Assembly (NCBI GenBank): GCA_963821845.1
Contig: CAWGFI010000006.1
Coordinates: 513,478 to 577,477, forward strand
Source of the DNA: an uncultured delta proteobacterium
Lineage (GTDB): Bacteria; Desulfobacterota; Desulfarculia; JACQYL01; CAWGVV01
DNA: 64,000 nt
Direction of reading: 5' to 3'
The notes under the pieces were generated by a model. It searched no databases. It was not told the origin of the DNA and worked only from the letters and a program-made list of their open reading frames with translations. Numbering within the stretch: the first letter of the stretch is position 1; each line of letters starts with the position of its first letter. Below are positions 11,274 to 46,990 of the stretch, piece after piece. A program made the translations under genes and the position numbers.

Positions 11274-12454
11274 TCAGTTCGATTTCGCGGTGCGGACGGG
11301 GCTGGCGTCTGCGAGGCTTCGCGCCGGCCTTGGAGCTGTTCAAGGGAACGGCCTTCACCGTGGCGCCCGGCCGAACATTCAGCATGCCCTCGACGATCAC
11401 CCGTTCTCCGCCGGATATCCCGGAAGAGACCAGCCACTGTCGCCGATGGCCCGGTTGAGCGTCAGCATCCGCTGCTGGACCACGCCTTTCTGTCATCCAC
11501 GATCAGCGCGAGGGTTCCCCCTTGGGAGTGCGGCTCACGCCCTGTTGAGGAGCCAGGATGGCATGTTCAGCAACGCCTTCCTGTATGAACGGCCCGCACA
11601 AACATTCCCGGCAGGAGCAGATTTTGCGGATTGGGAACCACGATGCGCAGCGTGAACGAACCGGTGGCCGGGTCCACCGTCACGTCGCGGAACTGCAGCG
11701 TTGCCTTCCAGCGGATAGGGTGTTCCGTCTTCCAGGAGTATGCGGACCTTTTTCCCGTTTTTTCCATCGGTGGTGAGTTCGCCGGTTTCCAGGTTGCGTT
11801 TCAGGCGCAGCAGTTCGGCGGACGACTGGGTCACGTCCACATAAATGGGGTCCAGTTGCTGAATGGTCGCACAGGGAGGTCGGCTTGATAGGCCGTCACG
11901 AGCGCCCCATCGGTCACGCTGGACATGCCTATCCGTCCGGAAATGGGAGCGGTGACGCGGGTATAGCCCAAATTGATGCGGGCCGCTTCAACCGCGGCTT
12001 TGCAATATTCGATCTCGGCCTTGGCCTGTTCCACCGCGGCCACCGCGTCCTCGTAATCCTGCGGGCTGACCGCTTTGACGTCAAGCAATTCCTTGTATCG
12101 TTCGGCCCTCGAGCGGATCGACGGCAAATTGGCCTGCGCTTTTCCCAGCGACGCCTTTGCGGAATCATAAGCCACCTGAAAGGGGACGGGATCGATCTGG
12201 TACAGGAGGTCGCCGGCTTTGACATCCGAGCCTTCCCGGAACAACCGCTTTTCTATGATGCCGTTGACCCGCGGCCGGATTTCCGCAATCAGGTAGGCGG
12301 AGGTACGGCCCGGCAATTCGGTGGTCAGCTCGATCTGCCGCGGCTCGATGGTCACCGTGGCCACTTCCGGCACGGGGGGCGGCGGGGCTTCCTTGCTGTG
12401 CCCGTTTTCGCAGCCCCACAGCAAAAGGAGACTCAAAAGAGCCGCCAGAACCAT
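11274..12454 (-). pseudogene. RND periplasmic adaptor (AcrA/MexA-like membrane-fusion lipoprotein), multiply frameshifted
   Basis: The N-terminus with LLWGC lipobox and lipoyl/hairpin domains is in ORF 11831..12568. The beta-barrel/MP domains are split over 11535..11840, 11567..11767 and the 5' part of 11053..11496. The inferred stop TGA is at 11274-11276. Confidence 0.8.
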
Positions 12455-12564
12455 GGCCCATCCGAGTGGCTGAAAATCTATTCCTTGTTCCGTTGCATCA
12501 GAAGACCTCCAGAAGCAAGATGATGAGCGATATTCAGTCGGAAATCCGTGCGAGAATTCATGAG

Positions 12565-13181
12565 TCAATCAGTCCTTTGAAAAAAATATCCAAAATGGTC
12601 GTCCGGGATTCTCCGGAAAGGGATGACCTCGGGCTCGTAAAGCCAAAGGAGAAGATAAGCGTCGAGCGTGCTGTCGAGAGCGACGGCCAGATGAAAGGGG
12701 TCGGCGATCTGCTTGAACCGTTTGTTTTCGATTCCGCTCTCAAGGATCGCGGCGACGTTTTTCAGAAAGGTGAAATACCGCGTTCGCATCTCTTCATCCA
12801 GGCCCGCCTTGATGTTGAAACTGGCCCCTCTGCTCTCGGCGAGAAAGAGCCGAATAAAGGCGATGTGCTTGCGAAACCGTTCGCCCGGGCCCGGATATAA
12901 TTTCGCAGTTTTTCCACCTCATCACCCGGCTCATTGATGGCTCGCGTGATGCTGTCCTCAAACTTTTCGTATTCTTCCAGAACAAGCGCCTTGTAGAGGT
13001 CCTCCTTGTTCTGGAAGAACTTATAGAGCGTTCCGATGGCGAACTCGGCCTTTTCGGCGATCTCGTGCATGGTTACGCTGTGGTACCCCTTCTGGGAGAA
13101 AAGATCGAGCGCGGCGGCGAGCATTTCCTGCCGCTGCCGCAGTTTCTCGCGCTCCCTGCGGGGGAGTTTTTTTGCTTGCAT
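12565..13181 (-). pseudogene. TetR/AcrR-family regulator of the efflux operon, frameshifted
   Basis: The N-terminal HTH (AALDLFSQKGYHSVTMHEIAEKAEFAIGTLYKFF) is in ORF 12762..13181. The C-terminal ligand domain is in ORF 12565..12789, in another frame. The connecting segment is readable only in a third frame. Confidence 0.75.
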
Positions 13182-13221
13182 TGCGTTACCTTTCTCCGCC
13201 CGTCCGATTTTCGTGAACGGC

Positions 13222-13249
13222 GCGTCACATTGTGTAATACTGCGTCACA
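13222..13249. promoter_or_regulatory. Direct repeat GCGTCACA-n12-GCGTCACA upstream of the efflux TetR gene; candidate operator
   Basis: Read directly. Copies are at 13222-13229 and 13242-13249 (20-bp periodicity), 41-68 bp upstream of the TetR start. Confidence 0.25.
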
Positions 13250-13515
13250 GGGTATCCGTCAAGCGGTTGTGAAGGGCGCTTTCGGGCCGCGACGGACCGT
13301 GAAAAAGCGAGCCAAACTCGCGCCCATAAAGCGATTCGCCCGTCCCCGAAGCGTTTGGTGGACTGAATAAACCTTTATCGAAAATTACTGTTATAATAAA
13401 AGGTGTAAAGGCGGGCCATTTGAATGTGGCGAGAAATGATGAAAACATAAAAGCTTGGAGCCTCGGTCGGATTACCATCGCGGCCGGGTCGTCCCAAGAC
13501 GGTGGAGGTGATCGG

Positions 13516-14200
13516 ATGGCGGTGTCCGGGGAAGAAATCATATTCCTTTTCGATGTGGACAATACCCTACTCGACAACGACAGCGTGCAGATCGACCTCA
13601 GAAACCATATCGAACGCGAATTCGGCGTGGAGAGCAGGGACCGGTACTGGGCGATTCTCGAAGAGCTGCGGGAGGAACTCGGGTACGTGGATTATCTCGG
13701 CGCGCTTGCAGCGCTACCGGCTCGAAGACCGCTGCGATCCGCATCTGCTGACCATGTCGTCGTTCCTGCTGGAATACCCCTTCCGCGATCGTCTGTATCC
13801 GGGTTCGCTGGACGTCCTGACGCGCTTCCAGTCCTGGGGGACCACGGTTATTCTGTCCGACGGCGACGTGGTTTTTCAGCCGCGCAAGGTCGAACGTTCG
13901 GGGCTCTGGAAAGCGGTGGAAGGGCGCGTACTCATCTATATTCACAAGGAAGAGATGCTGGAGGAAGTCGAGGAGCGCTATCCCGCCGGCCATTATGTCA
14001 TGGTGGACGACAAGTTGCGTATTCTGGCGGCCATGAAAAAGATTTGGAAAGACCGGCTGACGGCCGTCTGGCCGCGCCAGGGACATTATGCGCTCGACCC
14101 CCACGCGGTCGCCGACTATCCGCCGGCCGATCTCGACATTGCGCGCATCGGCGATCTGCTTACCTACGACCGGTCCGCGTTCCTCGGGACTCCCCGCTGA
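13516..14200 (+). pseudogene. HAD-superfamily hydrolase, one frameshift near 13.70 kb
   Basis: The start has a GGAGG RBS. MAVSGEEIIFLFDVDNTLLDN (HAD motif I, DxD) is in the frame of ORF 13420..14424. The remainder (...TTVILSDGD...VMVDDK...) is in the frame of ORF 13502..14200. Confidence 0.7.
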
Positions 14201-29817: not shown

Positions 29818-30489
29818 ATGCAGAGTTCCCTTCAATTCTTCCTACATCACCATGACAAGGTGTTCATGTGGGTATCGCAGCATATATGGATCAGCTTTGT
29901 TTCCATCCTGTTGGCATTGATCCTCGGCTTGTCGCTTGGAATCTACATCAGTCTGAACGGTAAGGAACGTCTCGCGGATGTGGTCATCTATCTGGCCGAG
30001 ATTATGATGACCGTGCCGAGTCTGGCCCTGTTCGGTCTGCTGATGTTTATTCTGGCTTACTTCGGTATTACCGCCATCGGCTTTGTTCCCGCCGTCATCA
30101 CGCTGGTCATATACGGTCAGCTACCCATTATCCGCAACACCCATACGGCTTTGTGCGGCGTCGATCCGGGCATCATAGAGGCTGGCAAAGGGATGGGAAT
30201 GACCGAAACGCAGCTCCTGTTCAAGGTAAAACTGCCGGTGGCCACGCCTGTGATCATGGCCGGGGTCCGCAACGCGACGATTCTCATAATAGGGATCGCG
30301 ACCATCGCGGCCCTGATCGGTTCGGGTGGGCTGGGCGCGCCTATTTTCAGAGGTCTGCGGAACGCCCGTATGGACCTTATCATTCTGGGCGGGGTTCTGG
30401 TGTCCCTGCTCGCGGTGTGCGCCGACGCTTTCATGTCCGTTGTTCAGAGGGTTGTGACGCCGAAAGGGATCAGAAAGAGTGCGCTATGA
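29818..30489 (+). CDS. Osmoprotectant (glycine betaine/choline/carnitine-type) ABC transporter permease, OpuBB/OpuCB-like
   Basis: 223 aa. BPD-transporter EAA-type loop: IIEAGKGMGMTETQLLFKVKLPVATPVIMAG. Confidence 0.85.
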   Translation: MQSSLQFFLHHHDKVFMWVSQHIWISFVSILLALILGLSLGIYISLNGKERLADVVIYLAEIMMTVPSLALFGLLMFILAYFGITAIGFVPAVITLVIYGQLPIIRNTHTALCGVDPGIIEAGKGMGMTETQLLFKVKLPVATPVIMAGVRNATILIIGIATIAALIGSGGLGAPIFRGLRNARMDLIILGGVLVSLLAVCADAFMSVVQRVVTPKGIRKSAL

Positions 30490-31592
30490 TCGAACTGGTT
30501 GAGGTGACCAAAACATATCCGAACGGAACCGAGGCGGTGAAACGGCTGAGTTTTACCGTGCGTGACGGCGAAACCTGTGTGCTACTGGGGCCGTCAGGCT
30601 GCGGCAAGACTACGGCCATGAAGCTCATCAACCGGCTCATCCCGGCGACTAGCGGCGGCATATTGATCGACGGTGTGGACAATAAAAAAATCGACGTTAA
30701 CGAGCTGCGAAGAAGCATCGGTTTCGCCATTCAGGATGTGGGGCTTTTTCCGCATATGACGGTGGGTCAGAACATAGCGACAGTCCCGGCGCTCAAGGGA
30801 TGGAGCAAAACCAGGCGGCGCGAGCGGGCTCTGGAATTACTGAACCTGCTGCGGCTGGATCCGAAAAAATTCATCGACAAGTACCCACATGAGCTGTCCG
30901 GAGGACAACGCCAGCGAGTGGGCGTGGCGCGGGCGCTGGGCGCGGACCCGCCCATCCTGTTGATGGATGAGCCCTTCGGCGCGATCGATCCCATCACCCG
31001 TATGGAGTTGCAGAACGAATTTCTGAAGATACAAGAACAGATCAAGAAGACGGTCATCTTTGTTACCCACGATATTTCGGAGGCCATAAAAATAGGAGAC
31101 CAAGTGGCGCTGATGAAAGCGGGCGAACTCGTCCAATTCGGTCCGCCCGTGGACCTGATATTCAATCCAAACACGGATTTCGCGAAATCGTTTACAGGAG
31201 TAGACAGCCCGCTCAAGGGGTTCAGGCGCTGCCGGTGGATACCGCCCTGTCCAATGAAACTCCCGCCGCCAAACCTCACGACAAATCGGACGCCGTCCGG
31301 TAAGCTTATGGACAAGGAAGACCTCCAATGGCTTCCGGTCATTGACGACGAGAACAAATATCTGGGCATGATATTCAGGCGGAATCTGCGCAAGGCCGAA
31401 ATCGTCTCCAAGATTCTCAGCAACAACATGGCCTACGCCACCAAGAACATGACCCTTGATCAGGCCCTTTCCCTACTGCTCACCAGCGGACAAAATTCCC
31501 TGGCGGTGGTGGACGAAGAAAGCGGGAATTTCGAAGGCGTGATCACCTTTGAAAAGCTGCAAAAGGAGCTTTCGGCTCTTTATAGGAAATAA
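30486..31592 (+). CDS. Osmoprotectant ABC transporter ATP-binding protein with C-terminal CBS pair (OpuBA/OpuCA-like); two internal compensating frameshifts
   Basis: Lies in ORF 30153..31592. The start ATG at 30486 overlaps the permease stop. Walker A is GPSGCGKTT, signature LSGGQRQRVGVARAL, Walker B ILLMDEPF. Between about 31205 and about 31300 the family-like sequence (VQALPVDTALSNETPAAKPHDKSDAVR) is in a different frame from the open one. Confidence 0.85.
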   Translation: MIELVEVTKTYPNGTEAVKRLSFTVRDGETCVLLGPSGCGKTTAMKLINRLIPATSGGILIDGVDNKKIDVNELRRSIGFAIQDVGLFPHMTVGQNIATVPALKGWSKTRRRERALELLNLLRLDPKKFIDKYPHELSGGQRQRVGVARALGADPPILLMDEPFGAIDPITRMELQNEFLKIQEQIKKTVIFVTHDISEAIKIGDQVALMKAGELVQFGPPVDLIFNPNTDFAKSFTGVDSPLKGFRRCRWIPPCPMKLPPPNLTTNRTPSGKLMDKEDLQWLPVIDDENKYLGMIFRRNLRKAEIVSKILSNNMAYATKNMTLDQALSLLLTSGQNSLAVVDEESGNFEGVITFEKLQKELSALYRK

Positions 31593-31601
31593 CCCCGATC
31601 A

Positions 31602-32396
31602 ATGAAACATTCCGTGGTTTTCATATGTTTGCTGACCGCGCTGCTCGGCCTCACGGCCTGGATCACCAGTTTGGGATCGATTGGCGGCGTGTACAGCGCT
31701 TTCTCGGCGGCGGACGTGACGCACAACGCTTGGGTCCACTTCAAGATGGTCTTTTTCTCGGTGGCCTTGGCCTCGTTAATCGGGGTTCCCGCCGGAATAC
31801 TGATCAGCCGGCCCGGTTTCAGCCGATTCGCCTGGATCGTTATCGGCGGGGCGGGTATCGGGCAAACCATCCCCAGCCTGGCCATCATTTCCATCATGGC
31901 CCCGATTCTGGGTTTCGGCCTGCAATCGGCCATTGCGGCGCTGGTCATTTACGGCCTGCTTCCCATCGTGCGGAACACATACGCGGGGATAAAAAGCATA
32001 GATCCGTCCATCATCGAAGCCGCCCAGGGCATGGGAATGGACAAGGCGCAGATCGCCTGGAAGATCGAAGCGCCCTTGTCCAAAAAGGTGATACTGGCCG
32101 GAATACGTGTTTCCACTGTTATCACCGTGGGCACGGCCGAACTGGCGGTGCTGGTGGGCGGCGAAGGGCTGGGGAAAATCACACTAACGGGCGTGTACGC
32201 GCGGGAGCCGCTTTTGATCCTGCAAGGCGCCGCGCCTACGGCCGCCATGGCCATAATCCTGGGATACCTGCTCGCGCATTTTGAAAATTGGCTGACACCG
32301 CAAGGGCTCAGGGGTAAACAAACGGCGCAGTGGGAGATTACCTGGAGTGCGAGATGCGAAGATCATTACCGGCCGTCATCTTGGCGGTTTTGCTGA
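31602..32396 (+). CDS. Osmoprotectant ABC transporter permease, OpuBD/OpuCD-like
   Basis: 264 aa. Contains IIEAAQGMGMDKAQIAWKIEAPLSKKVILAG. The last ~20 codons overlap the SBP start and may be out of frame. Confidence 0.8.
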   Translation: MKHSVVFICLLTALLGLTAWITSLGSIGGVYSAFSAADVTHNAWVHFKMVFFSVALASLIGVPAGILISRPGFSRFAWIVIGGAGIGQTIPSLAIISIMAPILGFGLQSAIAALVIYGLLPIVRNTYAGIKSIDPSIIEAAQGMGMDKAQIAWKIEAPLSKKVILAGIRVSTVITVGTAELAVLVGGEGLGKITLTGVYAREPLLILQGAAPTAAMAIILGYLLAHFENWLTPQGLRGKQTAQWEITWSARCEDHYRPSSWRFC

Positions 32397-33313
32397 CAGC
32401 TATTTTTTCCTTTCACCCAACATGGCGCGGGCTTCGGATAAGGAAATCGTTGTCGGCGCGAAAAACTTTACGGAGCAATACCTCATCGGCCAGATGATGA
32501 AGCAGCTTTTGGAAGATCGCGGTTTCAAGGTGTCCTTGCTGTCCGATCTTACCAGCGCGGCTTTGCGGGCGGGTATGGAAAGCGGCGACATCGACCTGTG
32601 CGCCGAATACATCGGGACCGCCTGGATGATTCACCTCAAACACGCGTATGAACCGGGCGTTTCCAATAAAGAACTCTATGAAAAAGTCAAGAAGCTGGAC
32701 GCTCAAAATGGGTTTCATTGGTTTCAGCCTATCTGGAACAACAACACCTTTGCGTTCGCTTCCTGGAACTCGTTCGCAAAGGAAAACAAGCTGAAAACCA
32801 TCTCCGATCTGGCGGCTCTATATAACGCAAAGGATGGGAACATCCCGACCTTTATCGATTTCGAATTCTCGGCGCGTCCCGACGGGTTGCCCGCGCTCGA
32901 ACAATTCTACGATTTCAAGGTCGCGCATTTCGGCGCTGAAGACCAGCGCGCCGGGGATATCACTATTGGGATTGAAGGATCACAAAGCGGAAGTGGTCAT
33001 GATTTTCGCCACCGACGCGTCGCTGACCAAATACGACTGGTACGTTTATCAAGACGATAAATCGTTTTTCCCGCCGTATGACCTGACTCCGTATATAAGA
33101 AAAGAGACGCTCGACAAGTATCCTGAAATCAAGGAAATTATCCGGGAACTCGTGGGTTCTTTTCCCGGAGGAAAAGGAGCCGCCGACGCCAAGGCGGTCG
33201 CGGAATGCCGGAAGGTATGGAGAACGCTCAACGCGCAGGTTGATATCGATCTGGAAGAGCCATCGGACGTGGCGCGAGCGTATTTGATTCGTAAAGGCCT
33301 TATAAAAAATTGA
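32354..33313 (+). pseudogene. Glycine betaine-type substrate-binding protein (OpuBC/OpuCC-like), frameshifted
   Basis: The signal peptide MRRSLPAVILAVLLTAIF is in one frame, with a shift in a T-run about 32405. The body (EIVVGAKNFTEQYLIGQMMKQLLEDRGF...) is in ORF 32347..33060. The C-terminus (VVMIFATDASLTKYDWYVYQDDKSFFPPYDLTPYIRKE...) is in ORF 32834..33313. Confidence 0.8.
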
Positions 33314-33481: not shown

Positions 33482-34997
33482 TTACGCGCAGTTAATTATT
33501 TTAGGCGGCCTTTCGGACCAGCGGCCGATGTTGGCTAGTATCAGGTCCGGACTTTCGTAGGCGTCCACCAGCAGCCGATGATAGTAGCATTCTTCCGCGC
33601 TTCTCAGATTGTCGTCGCGGTGGCTGGCGGAATATTTTCGCGCCTCTTCCTCGCTGTAGTTTTCAAAAAGACCCGACAATAGATCCACCGTCCCGCTGCC
33701 CTCATCGAACTGCTCTTTTTTGCGCCAGACGATCTCATCGGGCAGAAGATCCTCAACCGCCTTGCGCAGAATCCATTTTTCAACGGGGGGCGATCCGACA
33801 AGCTTATATTTGGCGGGAACCAGCATACCCATCTCGATCATCTTCAAATCCAGGAACGGCACGCGACCTTCTATAGAATGCGCCATGGTCATTCTGTCCA
33901 CGCGCTGAAGATTGATGTTATGCAGCGAACTCACCGACCGGCGCAATTCATCCTGGAGGATGTCCGGGTCCTTGATATCCTTGTAATAGGTGTAGCCGCC
34001 AAACAGTTCATCGGCCCCTTCCCCGGTCAGGATAACCTTCACATATTCCGCGGCGAGCCGTGAGGTGAAATAGCAGGGGATGGCGCTCCGCACCAGGTCC
34101 TGGTCGAAGGATTCCAGATAGTAGATGATTGTGGGGAGATCTTTTTTCACTTCCTCGGGCGTGATCACATACTCATGATGAATCGAGTCGATATGCCGGG
34201 CGACGATACGCGCGGCTTCGAGATCCTTGCTGCCCTCGATCCCCACGGAAAAAGTGTGCAGCGACCCCATGCTTCTCTTGACCAGAGCCGCGATAACGCT
34301 GCTGTCCAAACCTCCGGACAGAAACGCGCCCAGCGGCACGTCGCTCATGAGACGTTTCTCGACCGATTCCTCCAGCGTGGTTCGGATCTTTTTACAGTAC
34401 CTCGTCCGCGGAACCCTCCCGGCTTTTCAGGTTGGGCACGCTGTAAAAGGTGGAAAACCCTCGCTCGGAATGAAAACAGGAGCCTGGAGGAAATTCGTGG
34501 ATATCACGGCAGTTGGAAGGGAACGCCTTCAACTCGGACGCGAAAACCATGGAGTCATCCAGGTAACCGTAATAGAGCGGCTTGATGCCGATGGGATCGC
34601 GCGCCGCAAAGAAAGCGTTCCGGTCCGAAATGATAAAACTGAACATACCGTCCAGATGTTCGACGACGTCCGAAGCGCTGTCTTCATACTGGTGCAGTAT
34701 GGCTTCGGAGTCGCTAGTGGTTGAAAACCGGTGGCTGCGCGCCAGTTCGTCTTTCAGCCGTGGGAAATTATAGATTTCGCCATTGGCGATTATCGCTTTG
34801 GATCTGTTTTCGTTAAATATGGGCTGGTTTCCTCCTTGCGGGTCCATGATGCTGAGCCGCCGATGACCGAGGACGGTCTGGTCGTCGGAGGAAACAAAGG
34901 CGCCGTGCGCGTCCGGGCCTCGATGAACCATCGAATCGTTCATCCGTTCGATAACCGAGACGTCACTGCCTCCCCATATTGCCGATATGCCACACAT
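33482..34997 (-). pseudogene. Asparagine synthase (glutamine-hydrolysing) family amidotransferase, one frameshift near 34.37 kb
   Basis: The N-terminal Ntn-GATase domain starts MCGISAIWG (catalytic Cys2) in ORF 34392..34997. The synthetase domain, with PP-loop SDVPLGAFLSGGLDSS, is in ORF 33482..34348. Confidence 0.8.
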
Positions 34998-35097
34998 GCC
35001 TAACTCCCTTGGAACTCTGCGCTTGAAACGTACATCCGTTTGTCGGAACGCGCCGGTTGAATTCGAATTGCAGGATAAACGATAAAGAGCGTCCGCG

Positions 35098-36342
35098 CTA
35101 TTTCCTGATCTGGAATATGCCCACCAACCCGTGGCCTACGCCGGTACCGGGCTGAAGCTCCATTTCGAGCTTTCTTAAGCAATAACCGAGCATGGGCTCC
35201 AAAAAGTCCGCTCGGGCGTCAACCCAGTTGACCTCGCTCATATTGTCGGCGGTCGCGATCATGGTTTTCATGGCCTCCGCGAGCGACTCGTTTTCCCGGG
35301 CGTCCCGAGCCATTTGTTCGGCTTCGCTTTTCCGGCCTTCAAACAGCAGGGAAGCGCAATCAACCGCGTCGTTCACCGAGGAAAAAAAGTAGTCGAAAAA
35401 GCTGTTGAGCTTTTCATAGCCTTCGCGGGGCGTATGATCGATCTTCAGGCTCGACAGATCGGTGCGCATATGCGGTTCAAACAGAGAGTTCACATTGACG
35501 CGCATCTTTGGACAATTTGCGTTGTAATCGCCCGTGTCCATGTGCCGGCCGATAAGAATTGATCTATCGAAAAAAGACAACGGTTCTATGGTTACCCCGG
35601 ATCGCCGCGCGGCCGTGTCGATCACCGCGAGGATCTCCTGCTGAGTCATGAGCCGCAACGGGAACGAGGCGATATCGGCGTCTTGCCGCTCCTCTTCCGA
35701 GTAAATATAGGAAATGCGGTAATCCATGAAGTATTCCCGGTCCGGCGGGTTTCCCCACAGGTCCTGCCATTCGTAGGAATACCGCCCCAGCCAGTCGCCG
35801 ACAAATATCGAACCGTCAGCCGCGTGTTCGGCGACATCCGCAATAAGCGCCGCGTTTTGTTCGTCATGGAAGTGCGAAAGCGTTCCGTAGGTGGTGGAAT
35901 ACAGATCGAACGATTCTTCTCCCGTTATTTCCGCGGGCAGTCCATGGGTCAGATCAGCTTCCACGAATTTGTGCGTGGGAAGCTCCCCATAGATACCTTC
36001 GGCCATATCCAGCAGGTCCCGATTGATATCGAGGCCCACATATTCTTCCAAGACACCGGGTTTGATCACGTAGCCGTTGTTGACGGTGTTTTCTTCGGGA
36101 GACGGCACGGAAAGAAGCAATTCATAGCCGTCGGCGCTTCCGCAACCCATGTCGAGGACCCGGAGCTTCTGGCCGGCCGCGGTTTTACGGCCGGTAGCTT
36201 CGCTTAAAAATGGAGCAAGAAACAATGCGGTAGTCGCGTCCTCCCAGCACCGGCGCACGTTATCGTACTTGCCGAGCAACCGTGAGGACTTGTCATATTT
36301 CCCTGTGTTGACAGCCTGGGAATAAGCCGTTTTTTCAGCCAT
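35098..36342 (-). CDS. Class I SAM-dependent methyltransferase with a C-terminal extension of about 200 aa, substrate unknown
   Basis: 414 aa, intact. Motif I is RVLDMGCGSADG, post-I is YVGLDINRDLLDMA, followed by FVEADL and FDLYSTTYGTLSHF. The C-terminal half has no recognisable domain. Confidence 0.7.
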   Translation of the reverse strand: MAEKTAYSQAVNTGKYDKSSRLLGKYDNVRRCWEDATTALFLAPFLSEATGRKTAAGQKLRVLDMGCGSADGYELLLSVPSPEENTVNNGYVIKPGVLEEYVGLDINRDLLDMAEGIYGELPTHKFVEADLTHGLPAEITGEESFDLYSTTYGTLSHFHDEQNAALIADVAEHAADGSIFVGDWLGRYSYEWQDLWGNPPDREYFMDYRISYIYSEEERQDADIASFPLRLMTQQEILAVIDTAARRSGVTIEPLSFFDRSILIGRHMDTGDYNANCPKMRVNVNSLFEPHMRTDLSSLKIDHTPREGYEKLNSFFDYFFSSVNDAVDCASLLFEGRKSEAEQMARDARENESLAEAMKTMIATADNMSEVNWVDARADFLEPMLGYCLRKLEMELQPGTGVGHGLVGIFQIRK

Positions 36343-36371: not shown

Positions 36372-37056
36372 TTACGCGTTCAGCTCTTTTAGATAATCGA
36401 TCGCCTGGAACGCGTCCTTGCAGTGTTTGTCCGCGCCTATTTCATCGGCGAACTTGGAGGAAGTCGGCGCGCCGCCGATCAGGATTTTCACCTTGTCGCG
36501 AACATCGGCTTCTTTCAAAGCCGAGACGATTTCGCCCATTTCCCGCATGGTGGTCGTCAGAAGCGCCGACAGGCCAAGATACTGGGCGCCGTTGTTTTTC
36601 ACTTCCTCGACGATGGTCTTGGTGGCCACGTTGTTGCCTAGATCGATGACCTCATATCCCGCGCCCTTGAGAAGAATGGACACGATGTTCTTGCCGATGT
36701 CGTGCAAATCGTCCGCAGACGGTGGCTATGACGAATTTACCCTTGGGTTCCACGCCGTCTCTCAGCAGGTGGGGGCTCAATATATCCATCGCCGCGCCCA
36801 CGCATTCGGCCGAAGCGAGCATGTCGGGGATAAGGTATTCGCCTTTTTCGAATTTCTCGCCAACCTGTTCCATGGGAGTGGTAAGGGCGTCGACAACGAT
36901 TTCCTTGGCGTCTATGCTTTCCTCGATGGCCTGTTCCACCAGTTCCGTAACCGCGGGCTGCCCTTCAAGACCCTCGTCGATTCCTTCATCTTCCGCTTCC
37001 ACGCGTCCTTGAACTACATTAAATGCGATTTTTTCCAAATATTCCTGTTTATTCAT
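36372..37056 (-). pseudogene. Corrinoid (cobalamin-binding) methyl-carrier protein, MtgC/MtbC-like, one frameshift near 36.71 kb
   Basis: The N-terminal B12-binding_2 cap domain is in ORF 36652..37056. The Rossmann B12 domain, with DxHxxG (DDLHDIGKNIV), is in the frame of ORF 36372..36707. Confidence 0.8.
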
Positions 37057-37097: not shown

Positions 37098-38692
37098 TTA
37101 AGCGTTATTGTTCCGCAAGCTTGGCAATAAACCGGGAATCTCCCGGTAAATCCGGTCGATCTTGGCTTCTTCAATATGGCGTCCGGGCAGCGCCTCCAGA
37201 CGATCCAACTCCTCGAGTCCCCTTTCCAGTGTCCGGTCCTCAAGGTCCTTGCTTTCGAACAGATACGGATCGGATACGTAGCCGCTGTGCATGGCCTTGC
37301 GCGCGTGTCGGGCAAAGAGCCACGTTTTGGAATCGATCACCTTTCGCACCATCTTCAGCGCGTCCTCAATCTGACCGCTGTCCATTTCAGGCTCCATCAG
37401 GCAATGTTTCACCTTGCCAATCTGCTCATTGTCCAGAACGGCCTGCAACGGGCAAAAGGTATTGGTGCGGTTGAGCAGCCCGAACGCATAATGGATGTAC
37501 TGGGCGCCGCTCATGGCCATGTAGAGATGGGTGAACAGTTTTTCGAAAACTAGCCTGGCTCCCGGCGCCTTGGCGTCCCCCACGCCCGCCGTGGAGTAGC
37601 AGGGATATTGTAGAATCGGGCCAACTGGACACAGTCGATATTGTATTGGTTGAACTCCGGACAGCCGTACAGGTCGTGCAGATCATCCATGCGCGCCCGC
37701 ACCGGAACGCTGCCGTACAGCACCGGCGCTCCTTCTTTGATCAGTTGGGTGAGCGTAATGCCGGCCAAAATTTCGGCGTTGATTTGCGCCACCATGCCCG
37801 CTTCCTGGATGGGCGCCGTGGATCCGCCCTGCGGCGAAGAGGACATGACCAGCGGCAAACCGGCTTCCACGATGGCAAACACTTTCTCGGCGGTATCGTC
37901 GACAATCTGCAGCGGCGATTTAAAGAGACAGGTGATAAAGGAAATGATGGGGTTTTTCCTGAGCTCCTCGGGGCCGCCCGCGATGATTTCCGCCATGCGT
38001 GATAACATGGCCAGACTGTCAAGATTGGTCAGCCCGGCCTCCACATGCTTGGTTATGTTGTTGAGGCTGGCGAAAAATTTGTTCACATCATGATTTTCGA
38101 CCGTAATTTCCGGATCTTGTATATTCAGCGGCCGAATAAAGAAATCCAGATGCTCCAGCCGGTCGCATAATCGGGCCGCCCGGGCCAGCAAGCCGGCGGT
38201 TCCCCGTTTCTCCTGATGCTGCGGATATTTGATTTTAATCGAATCATCATCCGCCCGCACGAATTCCTGCATGCTGGTTTCCAGCCAAACGTTGCTTTCC
38301 GAACCGGAGCCGAAATAGACCCGAGGCACATCCGCTTCCAGTTTCAGGGAATTCTCGGTATTTCGCGCCCCCAACGTGACGGTCGAAGGCGCTTTTTTCA
38401 TGGCTTCCCGTACCAGGCCTGACGGCAATCGCACCCGCCAGCAGGGATGATTGAATCTTTTTTCCTCGGAAACATCCGCGCCATGGTCTTTATAGAGTTT
38501 GGCCGCCCGTTCGTTGAACGAAAATACGCCGGGATCGGAAAGAATATCCATGGAAGCGCGATCAAGCGTTTTAAGGGCTCGTTCGTCCAGCCGTTCGTAT
38601 GGTTTTACCAGCACGCCCTCTCGATAGGTCGTTGTCAAAATTGCCTCCCTTGTCTGTTCAAAAAATCCGCGAGTGGGTTTCGCGTTGAGCAT
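37098..38692 (-). pseudogene. MttB-superfamily methyltransferase paralogue 1 (long, about 541 aa, no amber codon), one frameshift at a C-run near 37.59 kb
   Basis: ORF 37550..38692 and ORF 37098..37583 join as ...ARFYNIP|CYSTAGVGDAKAPGA... if one C is added to CCC at about 37590. The TIM-barrel MttB pattern runs throughout. Confidence 0.75.
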
Positions 38693-38695
38693 TTC

Positions 38696-39490
38696 TCAGC
38701 CTCTGAATTGCCGCGTATACCGCTTACAGCGTTTGTCGCGACCGACCAGGACTTCAGCCGTCTTGACGGCGCTCATGAATTCCGCGTCCAATGGATCGGC
38801 GATGGCCGCGTCCAATCCGGCGTAGATCGCCATCTGAAGAAATCCTATGTTGAGCTTTTTTCGGGCCGGCAGGCCGTAGGAAACATTGGACAGGCCCAAA
38901 ACAGTGTGCGCTTCGGGAATGTTCGTTTTGAGCGCTTCCAGCGTTTTCAGCGTTGTCAGACCCTGGGTAACGTCGGCGCTGATGGGGAGCGTCAACGGGT
39001 CGAAATAGATCTTGTTCAGTTCGACGCCGCTCCGGGAGCAGAAAGACGCTATCTTTTCGCAAGCCTTCAACCGTTCATCAACGGTTTGAGGAATTCCTTT
39101 TTCGTTCATGGCCAGGGCGATGACTTCGCAGTCGTAGCCTTGGACAAGTTCCATCACCGCATCAAGCGTCTTATCCTCCGCTTTCACGGAATTGATCATG
39201 GCCTTCATGCCGTTCAGCGCTTTCAGCCCGGCTTCGAGCACGCCCGGATCGGCGCTGTCCACACTGATGGTCGCATCGACCGATTCCGAAACAAGCTTCA
39301 CGGCCCAATCCATGGCGGCGATCTCATCGTCCCGCGTTCCATCGCCGGTTCCCACGTTTACATCGATATAAACCGCCCCGGCTTCGGCCTGACCACGGGC
39401 CAGTGCGAGCAGATCGCTGTCATCGCGCTCGCCTATGATCCGCCTCACGTCCTTGATCGTGGCGTTTATTTTTTCTCCGATTATCTTCAT
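38696..39490 (-). CDS. Pterin-binding methyltransferase (methyl-corrinoid:tetrahydrofolate methyltransferase, MtgA/AcsE/MeTr-like)
   Basis: 264 aa, intact. Starts MKIIGEKINAT..., then YIDVNVG, ISVDSADPGVLEAGLK, INSV, LGLSNVSYGLP. This is the dihydropteroate-synthase-like fold pattern. Confidence 0.8.
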   Translation of the reverse strand: MKIIGEKINATIKDVRRIIGERDDSDLLALARGQAEAGAVYIDVNVGTGDGTRDDEIAAMDWAVKLVSESVDATISVDSADPGVLEAGLKALNGMKAMINSVKAEDKTLDAVMELVQGYDCEVIALAMNEKGIPQTVDERLKACEKIASFCSRSGVELNKIYFDPLTLPISADVTQGLTTLKTLEALKTNIPEAHTVLGLSNVSYGLPARKKLNIGFLQMAIYAGLDAAIADPLDAEFMSAVKTAEVLVGRDKRCKRYTRQFRG

Positions 39491-39503: not shown

Positions 39504-40967
39504 TTAACCGGCCAATATCGACTTTTCGATTCCGGGAACTTCCTTCAGAATCGCTTCCCGCAAGGACGCCGGCAAGACCGGTTTGTTTCCATTGTTCAGG
39601 ATCTCGTGGGCTTTCTCGGACGCTCTTTGCAGGGTGTCCTTCGCGCCCTCGGCGCTCCACCGTTCCCGGTCGAGTCTGTCGCTCAGCGTCGGTTGATAAT
39701 GTTCCCGGCGCATATAGCGGCGCGTGTGCCGGTTGGAAACAAAATGGCCGCCCGGCCCGGTTTGTTTAATCAGGTCATAGGCCAGGGTTTCCTCGTTGAC
39801 CTCGATCCCCGACACCGCTCTCATCAGCATGCCGTTGATTTCGTTATCGATGACCAGCTTGTCGTAAGAAGCGGTCAGACAGAATTCCAGGAACCCGGCG
39901 GCGTCGTGGATGCAGTTGCCTCCGGCCAGCGCCACCAGGGCGCTGGTGATGGCCGATTCGTAGCCGGATTGGGCGTCGTTGATTTTCGAGTCGGACATAC
40001 CCGCCGTGGTGTACACGGGAAGATTGTAGAATTGAGCCATTTGGGCGGCGCCCGCGTTCAGCAGCCCCATTTCGACCGCGCCCGAGAGATATTTCATATC
40101 CCGCAAATCCACGCTCGAAGCCACGCATCCCATAAGCGTCGGAGAGCCGGGATTTACCAGCTGTGCCAACATGACTCCGGCCAGGGTGTCCACGATCTGG
40201 ACCACCAGGTTTCCGGCCAATGTTACGGGCGCCGTGGCGCCGCACAGGGGCTCGGACGGCACGACCAGTGGTAAACCATTACGAACCACCTCCATGGCCA
40301 GCCGTCCGTACTGTTCGTCCAGCTTGAAAGGGCTGATGGAGCAGGTGACGAAGGAAACAAATGGTTTTTCCCGCAGCTTCTCCGGGGAGCCGGCTATCAT
40401 TTCGGCCATCTTGACAACGTCCCGCACGCCTTCAATGGTGTAGACGCCGCCCATGACGTGTTTGCGCGTGTTGTTGAGCGCCGCCGCGAAGCGATTGGCG
40501 TCAATGCGTTCCACGGGCAGTTCGTTGGGATACACATTGAGCATATAGAAATGGATGTTGTCCAAATGCTGAACCATCCGGGCCATGTTGGCGATATCGT
40601 CCAGACGCGCCGGACGGGCCTCGTCGGACCCCGCTTCCTGAACATTGAGCGCCGTGCCTCCGGTTCCCAGATAGACGCTGGCGCCGCCGATCTCGCAATC
40701 GTACTCCCCATTGTCGCCCCTGCCACAAAGCGTGACCGTGGACGGCGCCTTCGCGATCAATTCCTGCGCGAGCTCTGGCGAGACTTTGACCGTACGCGCC
40801 ACGTCATCCACCTCGGCGCCGGCTTTCTTGAAAAGTTGTCTCGCTTCATCGAAGTTGACTTCAACGCCGACTTCCGCCAGCACGCGAAACGTGGTTTCGT
40901 GAATGAGCCTGATGTCTTTATCGTTCAGCGGTTTATAATGGCCCGCCGCGCCATTTTTGTTTTCCAT
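39504..40967 (-). CDS. MttB-superfamily methyltransferase paralogue 2 (487 aa, non-pyrrolysine; glycine betaine/quaternary amine:corrinoid methyltransferase-like)
   Basis: Uninterrupted ORF. Contains IHETTFRVLAEVGVEV, PSTVTLCGR, FVTCSISPF...LPLVVPSEPLCGATAPVTLAG and YNLPVYTTAGMSDSK. There is no in-frame TAG. Confidence 0.8.
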   Translation of the reverse strand: MENKNGAAGHYKPLNDKDIRLIHETTFRVLAEVGVEVNFDEARQLFKKAGAEVDDVARTVKVSPELAQELIAKAPSTVTLCGRGDNGEYDCEIGGASVYLGTGGTALNVQEAGSDEARPARLDDIANMARMVQHLDNIHFYMLNVYPNELPVERIDANRFAAALNNTRKHVMGGVYTIEGVRDVVKMAEMIAGSPEKLREKPFVSFVTCSISPFKLDEQYGRLAMEVVRNGLPLVVPSEPLCGATAPVTLAGNLVVQIVDTLAGVMLAQLVNPGSPTLMGCVASSVDLRDMKYLSGAVEMGLLNAGAAQMAQFYNLPVYTTAGMSDSKINDAQSGYESAITSALVALAGGNCIHDAAGFLEFCLTASYDKLVIDNEINGMLMRAVSGIEVNEETLAYDLIKQTGPGGHFVSNRHTRRYMRREHYQPTLSDRLDRERWSAEGAKDTLQRASEKAHEILNNGNKPVLPASLREAILKEVPGIEKSILAG

Positions 40968-41012: not shown

Positions 41013-41771
41013 TTAAGCGTGCGCGGTTTGCCGGTGAGACGCCCGCCGGTACGAACAATCTTTGTTCGCGCAATGATCGCAGGGGTTGTAGGCGACTGTG
41101 GGACCCGGTCTATCCGTGACGCCAAAGACGCCGGATATGGATTTGCGGGGCGCCATGAGTCCGCCGGTATTGAGCGACACTCCGATTTCACCGGAATCCA
41201 TGGACGAAAAGAGCTTCTTCTGTTCCATCACGTTCCAGTCGCAATAGCCCGGCGAAAAGGGCAGGGTGGTCCCTTTCCTGATTAGTTTGAGATATGACCC
41301 GTATTGTGAGTGAAACTGCTCGATCATATTTTCGATGGCCACCGAGCCCAGAGATTCGACGATATACGCTTCCGACAACCGGTTCCGCTCAGTCAGTTTC
41401 CTGACCTCTTTTTCGATTTTTGACCCGATGGTTCCCACATACACCACGGCCCGTTTGCAGGAGCTGAACGCCTTGGCCAGCTTGTGACTGCGCCAGGTGG
41501 TTCCGTCAAAAAGACTTACCGCGGTTTTGGAAACGCCGGCGATCGGCTTAACGGAAAACAGCAGTCGAGGGTCGATCACCTGATCGACCCGCTCCATCCA
41601 GACTCCTACTTTGCGCTGAAGCCTGGCGGAAAGGCCGTTTTCGCCCGAACCCCCAAGCATTCTCAGAACTTCGGCTTTGGTATATTTGGGCGCAATACTG
41701 ACCATATTGCTTTCTCCGGGGAGTAGGCATTCATCAGGTTCAAAATCATTAAATTCCCGCAATGCGCGCAT
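41013..41771 (-). CDS. Stand-alone vitamin-B12-dependent methionine synthase activation-domain (Met_synt_B12-like) protein with a C-terminal Cys cluster
   Basis: 252 aa; the start may instead be Met23 at 41705. Contains LPFSPGYCDWNVMEQKKLFSSMD and GGLMAPRKSISGVFG, which resemble the MetH AdoMet-binding reactivation module. The tail is NPCDHCANKDC. Confidence 0.65.
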   Translation of the reverse strand: MRALREFNDFEPDECLLPGESNMVSIAPKYTKAEVLRMLGGSGENGLSARLQRKVGVWMERVDQVIDPRLLFSVKPIAGVSKTAVSLFDGTTWRSHKLAKAFSSCKRAVVYVGTIGSKIEKEVRKLTERNRLSEAYIVESLGSVAIENMIEQFHSQYGSYLKLIRKGTTLPFSPGYCDWNVMEQKKLFSSMDSGEIGVSLNTGGLMAPRKSISGVFGVTDRPGPTVAYNPCDHCANKDCSYRRASHRQTAHA

Positions 41772-41865: not shown

Positions 41866-42384
41866 CTATGGCTGTTCGGTTATCAAGGAGTCCATGAACC
41901 GAAATACCTCAACGACTCGTTCCAGTTTTTCATTCGACAATCCGGACAACCCCTCGATAATTGACTTCTGCACGGGAGCGGGGGCCTTCTCGGCAAAAGA
42001 GCGGCCGCTGCCCGTCAATTCAATCGTGACCACTCTTCGATCCGTGGAGCTGCGTTTTCTGGTAGCCAGCCCTTTGGCTTCCAGCCGATCGATGATGCCG
42101 GTAATGGTTCCCGGCTTCACCAGTATTCTCTCCGCAAGCTTTGAAAGAGGAGCCGGCCCATATCGATACAACGCCAGCAGACAGCTCAACTGGCCCTGGC
42201 TGATGTCGTATTCCTTTTGCAGCTTTTTGCTGAAGAGTTCGTCCGCCTGCACAAAGCGTCGCAAGTACCAGATTATCCAGAGGACGGAATCCGATAGCTC
42301 TCCTGGCGCCAAACCGCCAACATCAGCGCTACTCCTGTCGAGCGCAAGCCGGTTGCCCTTGTCCGTCTTGTCTTCTCGACTCAT
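41866..42384 (-). CDS. MarR-family transcriptional regulator (paralogue 1)
   Basis: 172 aa. Contains ISQGQLSCLLALYRYGPAPLSKLAERILVKPGTITGIIDRLEAKGLATRKRSSTDRRVV. Confidence 0.85.
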   Translation of the reverse strand: MSREDKTDKGNRLALDRSSADVGGLAPGELSDSVLWIIWYLRRFVQADELFSKKLQKEYDISQGQLSCLLALYRYGPAPLSKLAERILVKPGTITGIIDRLEAKGLATRKRSSTDRRVVTIELTGSGRSFAEKAPAPVQKSIIEGLSGLSNEKLERVVEVFRFMDSLITEQP

Positions 42385-42700: not shown

Positions 42701-44148
42701 TCAATACCGGTAATAATCGGGTTTGTACGGCCCATCCGCGGGAACGCCAATATACCCCGCCTGCTTTTCACTCAGCCTGGTCAATTTTCCTCCCAGTTTG
42801 CCCAGGTGGAGACGCGCCACTTCCTCGTCAAGTTCTTTCGGCAGGGTGTGCACGCCCAGCTCATATTCCTTGGTCCACAGTTCTATCTGAGCCAAGGTCT
42901 GATTGGTAAAGGAATTGGACATGACAAAGCTCGGGTGGCCGGTGGCGCACCCCAGATTGACCAGCCTGCCTTCGGCCAGCATGTACACACTGTGACCGTC
43001 CGGGAAGGTGTAGCGATCCACCTGCGGTTTTATGGAGGTCTTCTCGATATCCGGCCAATCATTCAGCGCGTCTACCTGTATCTCGTTATCGAAGTGGCCG
43101 ATATTGCAGACGATAGCCTGATCCTTCATGCCGGCCATATGCTCGGCGGTAATGACATCGCAATTTCCGGTGGCAGTGACGTAAATGTCGGCGAACTCCA
43201 GCGCGTCCTCCATCGTCACCACTTTAAATCCGGCCATGTAGGCCTGCAGCGCGCAGATGGGATCGACCTCTGTCACGAACACCCGAGCCCGATGCGCGGC
43301 CAGCGCCTCGGCGCATCCCTTGCCCACGTCGCCGTATCCGCACACCAGCGCGGTCTTGCCCGCGACCATGACGTCGGTGGCCCGCTTGATGCCGTCAACC
43401 AGCGATTCCCTGCACCCGTAAATGTTGTCGAACTTGCTTTTGGTCACGGAATCGTTGACGTTTATGGCCGGAAACAGCAGCTCTTTGCTCTTATGCATCT
43501 GATACAGACGATGCACGCCGGTGGTGGTTTCCTCGGAAACGCCCTTCAACCCGTTTACCACGTTGGTCCAGAATCCCGGTTCTTTTTGCAGCGTCTCCTT
43601 GAGCAACGCGTTGATGATTCTGAGCTCCTTGTTATCGGTGGGCTCGTCCAGGATGGAGGGATCTTTTTCCGCGGCGTACCCGCGGTGAGCGAGCAGTGTG
43701 GCGTCTCCGCCGTCATCCACGATCAGGTTCGGCCCCCCGCCGTCCGGCCAGGTAACGGCCTGTTTGGTACACCACCAGTATTCTTCCAGGGTTTCACCCT
43801 TCCAGGCGAAAACCGGAACTCCTGCCTTGGCGATGGCCGCCGCGGCGTGGTCCTGCGTGGAAAATATGTTGCACGAAGCCCATCTGACATCGCGCTCCCA
43901 ACTCCACAAGCGTTTCTATGAGCACGGCCGTCTGAATGGTCATGTGGAGGCTTCCGCTGATCCGCGCCCCTTGCAGCGGTTTTTGAGGCCCGTATTTCTC
44001 TCGCGTGGCCAGAAGCCCGGGCATCTCCTTTTCGGCTATCTCGAATTTCTTTTCTTCCGAAATCGGCTTGATTGATATCCTTGACTTTATAGGGAAGTGA
44101 GGTATCCAATCCTTCCGCGTTTGCCTGTGAAGCCGCGTTCGCTCTCAT
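42701..44148 (-). pseudogene. ahcY: Adenosylhomocysteinase, split over three frames
   Basis: The N-terminus [16 protein letters not shown] is in ORF 43723..44148. The segment [44 protein letters not shown] is in ORF 43794..44024. The rest ([40 protein letters not shown]...) is in ORF 42701..43909. Confidence 0.85.
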
Positions 44149-45356
44149 GCCGCAACCCTTGTTCCTTTCTTGGCGAAGCTCGCCAAAGCTTCCGCTTTAT
44201 CGGTCTTTTCCCAGGGGAAAATATCCCGCCCGAAATGGCCATAGGTGGACGAATCCCGATAGGACCATCCGTCGGGCCGCAGCAGGTTCAATTCCTTGAT
44301 AATGGCGGCGGGGCGAAAGTCGAAAATGTTCTCATGTTCCAGAATTTTCTGAAGGTCGGTGTCTTCCAGCGAACCGGTGCCGTAGGTGTCCACATTGATG
44401 CTGAGAGGCTTGGCCACGCCGATGGCGTAGGCGACCTGAATTTCGCATTTGTCGGCAAGACCCGCGGCCACGATATTCTTGGCGGCGTAGCGACCGTAAT
44501 ATGCGGCGGAGCGGTCGACCTTCGAGGGGTCTTTGCCGGAAAACGCGCCGCCCCCGTGGCTCCCGACTCCTCCATAGGTGTCGACGATGATTTTTCTACC
44601 CGTCACGCCCGAATCCGCATAAGGGCCGCCCAAGTATGAACGAGCCGGTCGGGATTGACGTAAAATTCGGTTTCGTCGCTCAGCATGTCCGTGGGGCCAA
44701 GGAGGTCGCGCGTCGCGTCCATAAGGTCTTTGCGGATGGTATTCCGAGCGGTACTTCATCGGTCTGATGGGAGATCACCACGGTGGTGATATGTTGGGGT
44801 TTACCGTTTTCGATATTGCACCGATATCTGCGATTTGGAATCGGGCCGGAGATAGTCCAAGTCCCTGTTTTTGCGTACGTCCTCCAGATGCTGCAGCAAG
44901 CGGTGGGCGTAGGCGATGGGGGCGGGCATGAGTTCGCGGCGTCTCATTGGTGGCGTACCCGAACATCATTCCCTGGTCCCCGGCGCCCTGTTCCTGGAAC
45001 AGGCCTTCTCCCTCTGATACGCCACAGGCTATGTCCGGTGACTGGGGATGTATTCGGGAGATGTACTCAAAGGAATTATGCCAGAAGTGATATTTTTCAT
45101 GATCGTACCCGATATCATTCACGATCTCGCGGGTAATGACTTCCGTATCGATATCATCCCAACCGCAGCAGGTTACTTCACCCGCATTGACGATCAGGTC
45201 ATGAGCCACCAGCGTCTCGACGGCCACCCGGCTTTTTGCGTCTGCCGCCAGGCAGGCGTCCAGAATCGAGTCGGATACTTGATCGCATATTTTATCCGGA
45301 TGTCCCTCGCTGACTGATTCAGAGGTGAAAACATGATCGGCCGAAATTTTGCTCAT
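44145..45356 (-). pseudogene. metK: S-adenosylmethionine synthetase, several frameshifts between about 44.64 and 44.94 kb
   Basis: The N-terminus [25 protein letters not shown]...[12 protein letters not shown] is in ORF 44775..45356. The C-terminus [11 protein letters not shown]...[19 protein letters not shown] is in ORF 44145..44759. The middle is readable only by frame hopping. Confidence 0.85.
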
Positions 45357-46387: not shown

Positions 46388-46990
46388 TCATTCGCAGAGT
46401 AACAATCCACTGATTCCTCTTACAATCATTTCAATTGAAATAGCTCCTATTATCAGGCCATTTATTCTGGATAATATATTAACATAAATATCGAAAATCT
46501 TTATGTTTTGATCCGTTATTCTATCTCTGATCTGTTTGAATACCAGAACGAACAAAGTGCTGATAGCGACCGCAAGCAGCAAAATAATTACCGATGTTAT
46601 AGAATTTGTCTTTTTGCCAATCAAAATAGATTGAGTAATGGTTCCAGCGCCAATCATAAAAGGAACCGCAATTTGAGAAGGAAGCTCTTCTATGTCCCCT
46701 CTTAGAACAATGGCAGCCTTCGATCCTTTTGTAACGTAATTATAGGCGACAATAAGAAATACTATACCGCCAAAGCACCGTAGGGCTTCGGTTCTGACGG
46801 AAAAAACCGTAATGAGTAGTTTGTCCCCGAATAAGGAGAAAACGGCAAACACAATATACGATATGAGCGAAGCAATGCTTAATACCCTAAGGAAGTTTTT
46901 TGAGTCCAGCTCTTCAATGATACCGGCCAGATACAGGCATAATGCGAACGGATTGAGGATTACTATAAAGCTTAAGAGGAGTTCGATCAT
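46388..46990 (-). CDS. MarC-family (UPF0056) integral membrane protein
   Basis: 200 aa, polytopic. Contains ILNPFALCLYL and VPFMIGAGTIT. Codon usage is markedly AT-rich compared with the flanks. Confidence 0.7.
   Translation of the reverse strand: MIELLLSFIVILNPFALCLYLAGIIEELDSKNFLRVLSIASLISYIVFAVFSLFGDKLLITVFSVRTEALRCFGGIVFLIVAYNYVTKGSKAAIVLRGDIEELPSQIAVPFMIGAGTITQSILIGKKTNSITSVIILLLAVAISTLFVLVFKQIRDRITDQNIKIFDIYVNILSRINGLIIGAISIEMIVRGISGLLLCE

Follow-up and report, generated by a model that had tools for sequence, protein, structure and literature searches.

A conserved methyltransferase-amidotransferase pair in a corrinoid-dependent demethylation operon of anaerobic bacteria, possibly for an amide-bearing quaternary-ammonium solute

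Introduction

Quaternary amines are major sources of carbon, nitrogen and methyl groups in anoxic marine sediments, and precursors of methane and trimethylamine. Here we describe a pair of genes that may act on a compound of this kind. They encode an S-adenosylmethionine (SAM)-dependent methyltransferase, hereafter MT, and an amidotransferase resembling asparagine synthetase B (AsnB), and lie in a stretch of 64,000 nt, hereafter the window, of an uncultured delta proteobacterium (Desulfobacterota; Desulfarculia; assembly GCA_963821845.1, contig CAWGFI010000006.1, positions 513,478-577,477 of the forward strand). The pair is the tail of a widely conserved operon of anaerobic bacteria, which runs from a MarR regulator through a MetH-activation-like protein, a first MttB-family methyltransferase (MttBa), a pterin methyltransferase, a second MttB paralogue (MttBb) and a corrinoid protein to MT and the AsnB-like gene. 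We favour, at about an even chance, the reading that the two enzymes are a dedicated pair making or tailoring an N-methylated, amide-bearing quaternary-ammonium solute, and that a frameshift in the AsnB-like gene is an artefact.

Upstream of the pair, the operon is made up of the same components as the Mtg system of Desulfitobacterium hafniense (MtgB, MtgC and MtgA; structures 2QNE and 9YCE), namely an MttB-family methyltransferase, a corrinoid protein and a pterin-binding methyltransferase. It differs in having two MttB paralogues, in which three of the four contacts of D. hafniense MtgB (DhMtgB) with glycine betaine (Y97, R312, H348) are changed and the fourth, F356, is also not conserved. 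It further differs in having a MetH-type activation protein instead of a RamA-type activase, and in the SAM methyltransferase and amide synthetase appended to it, an addition for which we know of no counterpart in a described Mtg system. The de novo glycine betaine loci of halophiles cluster glycine sarcosine and sarcosine dimethylglycine methyltransferases (GSMT/SDMT) with metK and ahcY. Our locus resembles them in that a SAM methyltransferase is clustered with additional copies of metK and ahcY and a betaine transporter, but here there is one methyltransferase of 414 residues, apparently of another family and with a helical insertion, accompanied by an amide synthetase and a corrinoid demethylation operon.

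Two further systems are relevant to the amidotransferase and to the idea of tailoring. In the N-acetylglutaminylglutamine amide (NAGGN) pathway, formed by Ngg and AsnO, an AsnB-family enzyme amidates the carboxylate of an osmolyte and removes its charge, as we propose here, but the partner in our case is a methyltransferase. In Eubacterium limosum, the ATP-using tailoring enzyme MthK readies a quaternary amine for the MttB-family demethylase MthB (PMC12155760). MthK attaches an acidic phosphate to suit a pocket with Arg, whereas here tailoring would remove an acid for a Tyr-bearing pocket, with the participation of a SAM methyltransferase.

Conservation of the pair and its operon

The pair and the genes upstream of it were annotated as follows.

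35098-36342, minus strand: MT, class I SAM-dependent methyltransferase of 414 residues, intact (open reading frame list, Pfam)
34392-34997, minus strand: AsnB-like amidotransferase, N-terminal piece of 201 residues starting with MCGIS; GATase_7/GATase_6, class II glutaminase (Pfam, NCBIfam)
33482-34348, minus strand: AsnB-like amidotransferase, C-terminal piece of 288 residues with the SGGLDSS PP-loop; Asn_synthase (Pfam, NCBIfam)
34395-34405, minus strand: frameshift site in the AsnB-like gene, an additional base at about 34402-34404, some 8 nt ahead of the TAA stop (DNA alignment with the related locus L001)
36372-37056, minus strand: corrinoid protein (B12-binding_2 and B12-binding), split by one extra base; directly upstream of MT
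37098-38692, minus strand: MttBb, MttB-family paralogue, frameshifted in the window; Tyr at the positions of DhMtgB R312 and H348
38696-39490, minus strand: pterin-binding methyl-corrinoid:tetrahydrofolate methyltransferase
39504-40967, minus strand: MttBa, MttB-family paralogue without in-frame TAG; Tyr at the position of DhMtgB R312, Asp at that of H348
41013-41771, minus strand: homologue, at 41% identity, of the first protein of the operon in relatives, which carries PF02965 (MetH activation domain)
41866-42384, minus strand: MarR regulator ahead of the corrinoid operon
42701-45356, minus strand: ahcY and metK, extra copies, both with indels

An earlier note, made from the sequence, had placed the pair at the end of a co-directional run (marR-metK-ahcY-marR and on to the corrinoid protein), which we measure at 12.65 kb. 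It had also called the pair an orphan, and this does not hold. We surveyed 80 species-representative related loci, 72 of which have at least 1.2 kb of DNA past MT and could be used to see which gene follows. In all 80, MT comes directly after the MetH-activation-like protein, MttBa, the pterin methyltransferase, MttBb and the corrinoid protein, on the same strand. The next gene is AsnB-like in 64 of the 72, with a median gap of 66 nt (100 nt in the window), and the pair is thus conserved in many species. The survey also answers the note's question whether the two genes co-occur elsewhere together with MttB and Opu genes: Opu importers lie at most 10 kb away in no fewer than 28 of the loci that were fetched. 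The corrinoid protein and MT are also adjacent in the loci L089, L090, L093 and L094, and the cassette is found in Actinomycetota, Aminicenantes and other anaerobes.

In four loci (L044:11263-16714, L048, L051 and L063), the place of the AsnB-like gene after MT is taken by a module made of a bona fide ProA (519 bits for a cut-off of 289), a divergent GCS2-type carboxylate-amine ligase and a DUF362/4Fe-4S protein, to which two of the four add a PutP-like symporter. None of the surveyed loci has both the AsnB-like gene and this ProA/GCS2 module. Distant lineages (L089, L091, L092, L093), one of them an Actinomycetota, have the ProA/GCS2 version as well, together with MT, MttBs, the corrinoid protein and OpuA genes. 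The same either/or is seen at the level of genomes. Of 400 genomes sampled evenly from the phylum and searched for MT, MttBb and the ligase modules, 17 (about 4%) have MT, and all 17 also have MttBb. Eight of these 17 have AsnB2, a Cys-less form of the AsnB-like protein, six have a GCS2-like ligase, none has both, and three, from a single genus, have neither. One of the latter was inspected and has a Cys-bearing form (AsnB1) with metK and ahcY, arranged as in the window. Each of the 17 genomes has one ligase module, as we infer by extension from this genome in the case of the other two of the same genus. The either/or between AsnB and ProA/GCS2 ties the pathway to the chemistry of Asp/Asn or Glu/Pro and is the least understood fact of this work.

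Five proteins of 901-949 residues are fusions of the two enzymes, which start with MCGI and a Cys-bearing AsnB domain, followed by a short linker and then MT. The fusion genes overlap with the beginning of an Opu ABC operon, with which they are co-transcribed, and adjoin MarC/NAAT and Usp genes. The Opu binding domain at these loci is most like ProX of Archaeoglobus fulgidus, which binds glycine betaine as well as proline betaine. The fusions and their co-transcription with Opu genes argue that both enzymes work in a single pathway, on a small molecule handled by a betaine-type carrier.

Many of the relatives (L007, L022, L027, L059, L081, L082 and L084) carry, some 3-7 kb downstream of MT, a second block that is absent from the window. 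It consists of a pterin methyltransferase, a corrinoid protein and two more tandem full-length MttB paralogues. We had considered that the double MttBa matches found there could come from a pyrrolysine gene split at its TAG codon, and rejected this since the two paralogues are each full-length. In the Actinomycetota locus L089, the gene that follows MT (11434-14109) was called at 891 residues, has no Pfam family and contains one in-frame stop, which may reflect recoding or an error.

The AsnB-like partner

The window protein has the complete glutaminase site of the family (Cys2, R49, N74, G75, E76, D98) and retains the SGGLDSS PP-loop together with E348, D351, E352 and K449. Pfam and the residue alignment thus uphold the earlier description of the gene as an AsnB-family enzyme with a Cys N-terminal nucleophile domain and an SGGLDSS motif. 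It has the same two-domain build and catalytic residues as E. coli AsnB (1CT9) and human ASNS (6GQ3), and its intact relative scores 320 bits against 1CT9.

The substrate pocket is another matter. We aligned nine canonical AsnBs, including that of E. coli, with three groups of MT-linked proteins: 25 of the AsnB1 type (among them that of the window), the five fusion domains and 53 of the AsnB2 type. All three MT-linked groups have the PP-loop, E348, D351, E352, R387 and K449. They all differ at eight positions that are invariant in the canonical enzymes, and every MT-linked protein has other residues at the aspartate-site positions T321, T322, A325, M329, K376, D384 and N389. The changes are as follows, in E. 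coli numbering.

T321: D, A or S
T322: L
A325: S
M329: C or N
K376: S, L or C
D384: N or A
N389: D
K390: R

In the window, the residues at T321, T322, K376, D384 and N389 are D, L, S, N and D, respectively. The counterpart of E. coli D384 in human ASNS, D400, lines the pocket in which the alpha-amino group of the substrate is held (PMC6748925). The Cys nucleophile, R49, N74 and D98 are kept in all 25 AsnB1-type proteins. AsnB2 additionally lacks Cys1, R49, N74, D98 and the ExRVPFLD motif, and it is a commoner operon partner than AsnB1. The cultured Desulfoferrobacter suflitae DRH4 has an intact pair, with MT, AsnB1 and AsnB2. Stand-alone AsnB2 genes were seen at L096:9319-10887 and L097:10617-12155, away from any MT or MttB, one of them with genes for a cytidylyltransferase and a class I/II aminotransferase next to it.

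In a maximum-likelihood tree, the nine canonical AsnBs form a clade with 100% support that contains no MT-linked protein, and the window protein is placed in an 18-member AsnB1 clade. The best NCBIfam model for the two pieces of the window protein is asparagine synthase B (NF006949), with 210 and 323 bits for a cut-off of 499, a borderline assignment by score. The AsnO type of the NAGGN pathway was rejected, since model TIGR03104 gives only 132 and 127 bits for a cut-off of 570. This and the lack of any Ngg-like (GNAT/ATP-grasp) gene among the annotated neighbours of the pair agree with the earlier statement that the Ngg partner is absent. The lasso-peptide cyclase and XrtA amidotransferase types were likewise discarded, with scores far under their cut-offs. 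Judging from the alignment and the tree, the MT-linked AsnBs are a separate clade with a derived acyl-substrate pocket, and are neither ordinary AsnB nor AsnO. The genome of the window has no other AsnB-type asparagine synthetase, just long paralogues of the exopolysaccharide type, which carries little weight at a completeness of 71%.

The pockets of the two MttB paralogues

In DhMtgB, Y97 and F356 hold the trimethylammonium group of glycine betaine, and R312 and H348 hold its carboxylate (PMC13080624). R312 is reported to be conserved in all characterised members of the MttB family, whose substrates are without exception acidic quaternary amines (PMC13080624). MttBa is clearly related to this enzyme (265 bits against DhMtgB). 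Yet the R312 position is occupied by Tyr, or rarely Trp, in 73 out of 73 MttBa and 77 out of 77 MttBb, i.e., in all 150 MttBs of the operon, including MttBa of the window. At the H348 position there is Asp in MttBa and Tyr in MttBb. The same residues are found at both positions in the MttBs of the ProA/GCS2-type loci, and the pyrrolysine enzyme 7xcl likewise has Tyr at position 312. The loss of the carboxylate-binding Arg makes it unlikely, on sequence grounds, that the substrates of MttBa and MttBb are acids like glycine betaine, and it fits a carboxylate that has been turned into an amide.

An Rfam search of the window between 28 and 48 kb gave no riboswitch family, its sole matches being a tRNA and PYLIS_3, the pyrrolysine insertion sequence of mttB. 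The latter lies within MttBa (39899-39998, minus strand) and scores 47.7 bits, above the gathering score. It is probably plain coding-sequence homology to the pyrrolysine-type mttB.

The methyltransferase family

MT meets Pfam with generic class I models only (Methyltransf_25, Methyltransf_12 and Methyltransf_31), within residues 59-179 (99-175 for Methyltransf_25), and it matches no NCBIfam family at E ≤ 0.01. Its motif LDMGCGSADG is the SAM motif of the GxGxG class and identifies it as a class I SAM methyltransferase. More than 1500 full-length homologues of about 419 residues were found, mostly in metagenome-assembled genomes of Desulfobacterota. Identity with the window protein is 53-57% for most of them and 84-89% for a few. 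The family is narrow, since only 283 clusters at 50% identity turned up when 1.8 billion representative proteins were searched exhaustively. Its invariant motifs, e.g., DWLGRYSYEWQ, EYFMDYRISY and DRSxxxGRHxDT, are spread over the full length of the protein.

The earlier note had reported an intact protein of 414 residues whose C-terminal half resembled nothing familiar, and had proposed structure prediction, especially for that half. The description holds. There is no Pfam match past residue 179 and no relative of the C-terminal half by sequence in the PDB, where the best match is a Pyrococcus horikoshii methyltransferase without a name (E 5e-6, covering residues 101-188 only). The AlphaFold2 model (mean predicted local distance difference test score of 85) has a Rossmann core with alternating strands and helices. 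Its C-terminal half is built from a beta-hairpin lid, then one helix and one strand, a four-helix insertion (residues ~280-396) and a final core strand (405-413). In the model, therefore, the C-terminal half is not a separate domain. Foldseek gave 612 matches to class I methyltransferases at E ≤ 0.001. Against the PDB, the Rossmann core alone is matched (TM-score of ~0.3 on the query), and the top matches include small-molecule and peptide N-methyltransferases. As far as these comparisons go, MT belongs to no characterised family. It is most likely an N-methyltransferase, with nitrogen as the presumed methyl acceptor.

Neighbouring genes

Two further features flank the operon and the pair.

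29818-33313, plus strand: Opu-type ABC importer with permeases, a CBS-domain ATPase and an OpuAC binding protein (frameshifted); convergent with the pair
46388-46990, minus strand: MarC/NAAT-family transporter, of the family that also adjoins the AsnB-MT fusion genes

The annotation confirms the convergent arrangement of the importer and the pair that was described earlier. The MetH-activation-like protein of the window has no Pfam or NCBIfam match of its own. Other ahcY/metK copies, apparently intact, are present elsewhere in the genome (G000:C6:387624-389036 and G000:C2:223440-224585), so those of the island are extra. The part of the window between 46388 and 62265 is rich in osmotic-stress genes, with the MarC/NAAT transporter, an MscS-type channel of 693 residues and the alpha-glucan and trehalose genes TreS, Mak, GlgE and GlgB.

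Proposed pathway

In the pathway that we favour, the precursor would be an acidic, amino-acid-like compound. The AsnB-like enzyme would amidate it at the expense of ATP and glutamine, thereby removing its negative charge, and MT would transfer to it methyl groups from SAM. The extra metK and ahcY would regenerate SAM, and their presence fits a bulk use of this cofactor. The solute would be moved by Opu-type carriers, and when it is consumed or recycled, MttBa and MttBb would strip its methyl groups and pass them to the corrinoid protein and then to tetrahydrofolate. The earlier note had suggested that the pair makes an undescribed amidated or N-methylated molecule, either a compatible solute or a modified substrate for the MttB system. 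The links to MttB and Opu are borne out and are tighter than it had supposed. The identity of the product and the choice between solute and substrate are what we infer, as are the substrate class, the N-methylation, the order of the steps and whether the pair serves synthesis or tailoring.

Several observations weigh against this pathway. The synthesis and demethylation of one solute in one operon look futile unless the activity of the enzymes is regulated. The 10 kb to each side of the fusion genes contain no MttB, so the pair can work without MttB. MT adjoins the corrinoid protein even in lineages without AsnB, and could serve the corrinoid system itself. Its Foldseek matches do not discriminate between N-, O- and C-methylation. 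MttBb keeps a conserved Arg/Lys at position 355, which makes the case for a non-acidic substrate weaker for this paralogue. Finally, Cys-less AsnB2 genes stand alone in housekeeping contexts in at least two genomes.

Alternative explanations

The best of the alternatives, although an unlikely one, is that the pair serves catabolism: an imported betaine that is acidic or partly methylated would be amidated, and methylated to the quaternary state, to fit the Arg-less pockets of MttBa and MttBb. The absence of R312 from both MttBs is consistent with this, as are the Opu importers found near so many loci, one of which faces the pair in the window. ATP-dependent tailoring ahead of MttB-type demethylation also has a precedent, phosphocholine being the substrate of MthB (PMC13080624), for which the choline kinase MthK prepares choline in E. 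limosum. However, two ATP equivalents and a SAM spent to harvest methyl groups would be a poor bargain for sulfate reducers, there is no gain in adding a SAM-derived methyl group that is then removed again, and the fusion loci have the pair and the Opu transporter with no MttB nearby.

It is rather improbable that MT serves the corrinoid system, by SAM-dependent re-methylation or repair of the corrinoid protein, and that the AsnB-like protein is a bystander, namely the asparagine synthetase of the lineage. The adjacency of MT and the corrinoid protein is indeed the most constant feature of the loci, seen in all 80 and in the four additional ones listed above. The summed NCBIfam scores of the AsnB pieces (533 bits) exceed the cut-off of 499, no other asparagine synthetase of this type was seen in the window genome, and the stand-alone AsnB2 genes lie in housekeeping contexts. 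On the other hand, the AsnB-MT fusions have no corrinoid genes in their vicinity, a MetH-type activation protein is already part of the operon, and the MT-linked AsnBs share changes at invariant pocket residues and fall outside the canonical clade. The strict replacement of AsnB by the ProA/GCS2 module, in the very same position, argues against a bystander and is hard to square with chance placement.

Very unlikely, in our view, is the possibility that the locus is decaying in this genome, i.e., that the frameshift in the AsnB-like gene and the other indels of the island are real and the pair is non-functional here. The island has at least seven lesions in ~16 kb (in OpuAC, the AsnB-like gene, the corrinoid protein, MttBb, ahcY and metK), and the yidC-mnmE block of the same window is intact. 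Yet every lesion that we inspected is a single-base indel, MT and all the catalytic residues of the AsnB-like protein are intact, and AcrB (8105-9982), which lies outside the island, also has a single-base lesion and lacks the first 417 positions of its profile. Two essential genes, rpoB and rpoC, are broken worse than those of the island, in three and at least six pieces (G000:C17:22595-30867), in an assembly with an estimated completeness (CheckM-type) of just 71%. Since rpoB and rpoC are also fragmented and the AsnB-like gene is intact in an 87%-identical relative (L001), the frameshift, a single extra base, is probably an indel error of the assembly, and we rejected the death of the gene as its explanation. 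Pseudogene calls in this genome need read support. The pairing is conserved, MT groups with no characterised family and the amidotransferase gene is probably alive, the reverse in each case of what the earlier note had said would undo its proposal.

The least probable alternative, which we regard as a long shot, is that MT and the AsnB-like or ProA/GCS2 enzymes make a small amide or pyrroline-carboxamide-type molecule, or modify a protein residue, and that the product replaces pyrrolysine as a diffusible or attached cofactor, letting the Arg-less MttBs demethylate amines other than acidic betaines. Amide formation is common to the AsnB-like and GCS2 enzymes, ProA gives pyrroline-5-carboxylate, the desmethyl head-group of pyrrolysine, Tyr312 is shared by MttBa, MttBb and the pyrrolysine-containing MttB 7xcl, and every MT-bearing genome of the 400-genome sample has MttBb; the energy cost would be irrelevant for a molecule made once and not in bulk. 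But we know of no chemistry of this kind, the AsnB-type loci have no ProA, the extra metK and ahcY suggest bulk use of SAM, and the fusions are co-transcribed with Opu transporters with no MttB nearby. In a milder version, the operon would serve to make, transport and, in a B12-dependent way, recycle amidated betaine osmolytes that form a new class, widespread in anoxic sediments.

Conclusions

Full-text literature searches returned no paper describing this MT family, the AsnB clade or their link with MttB, and the cassette appears to be unpublished. What is new here is the pocket signature of the MT-linked AsnBs, the change from Arg to Tyr in both MttBs, the either/or between AsnB and ProA/GCS2 at the level of genomes, and the evidence that the frameshift is an artefact. 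The cassette joins B12-dependent demethylation by enzymes with unusual pockets, a methyltransferase family that is new and an asparagine synthetase that has been re-tooled. Identification of the metabolite would correct the probably wrong "asparagine synthase" annotations of these proteins, would give a function to more than 1000 annotations of "class I SAM-dependent methyltransferase", and would add a new solute or a new methyl-cycling route to the biogeochemistry of sediments.

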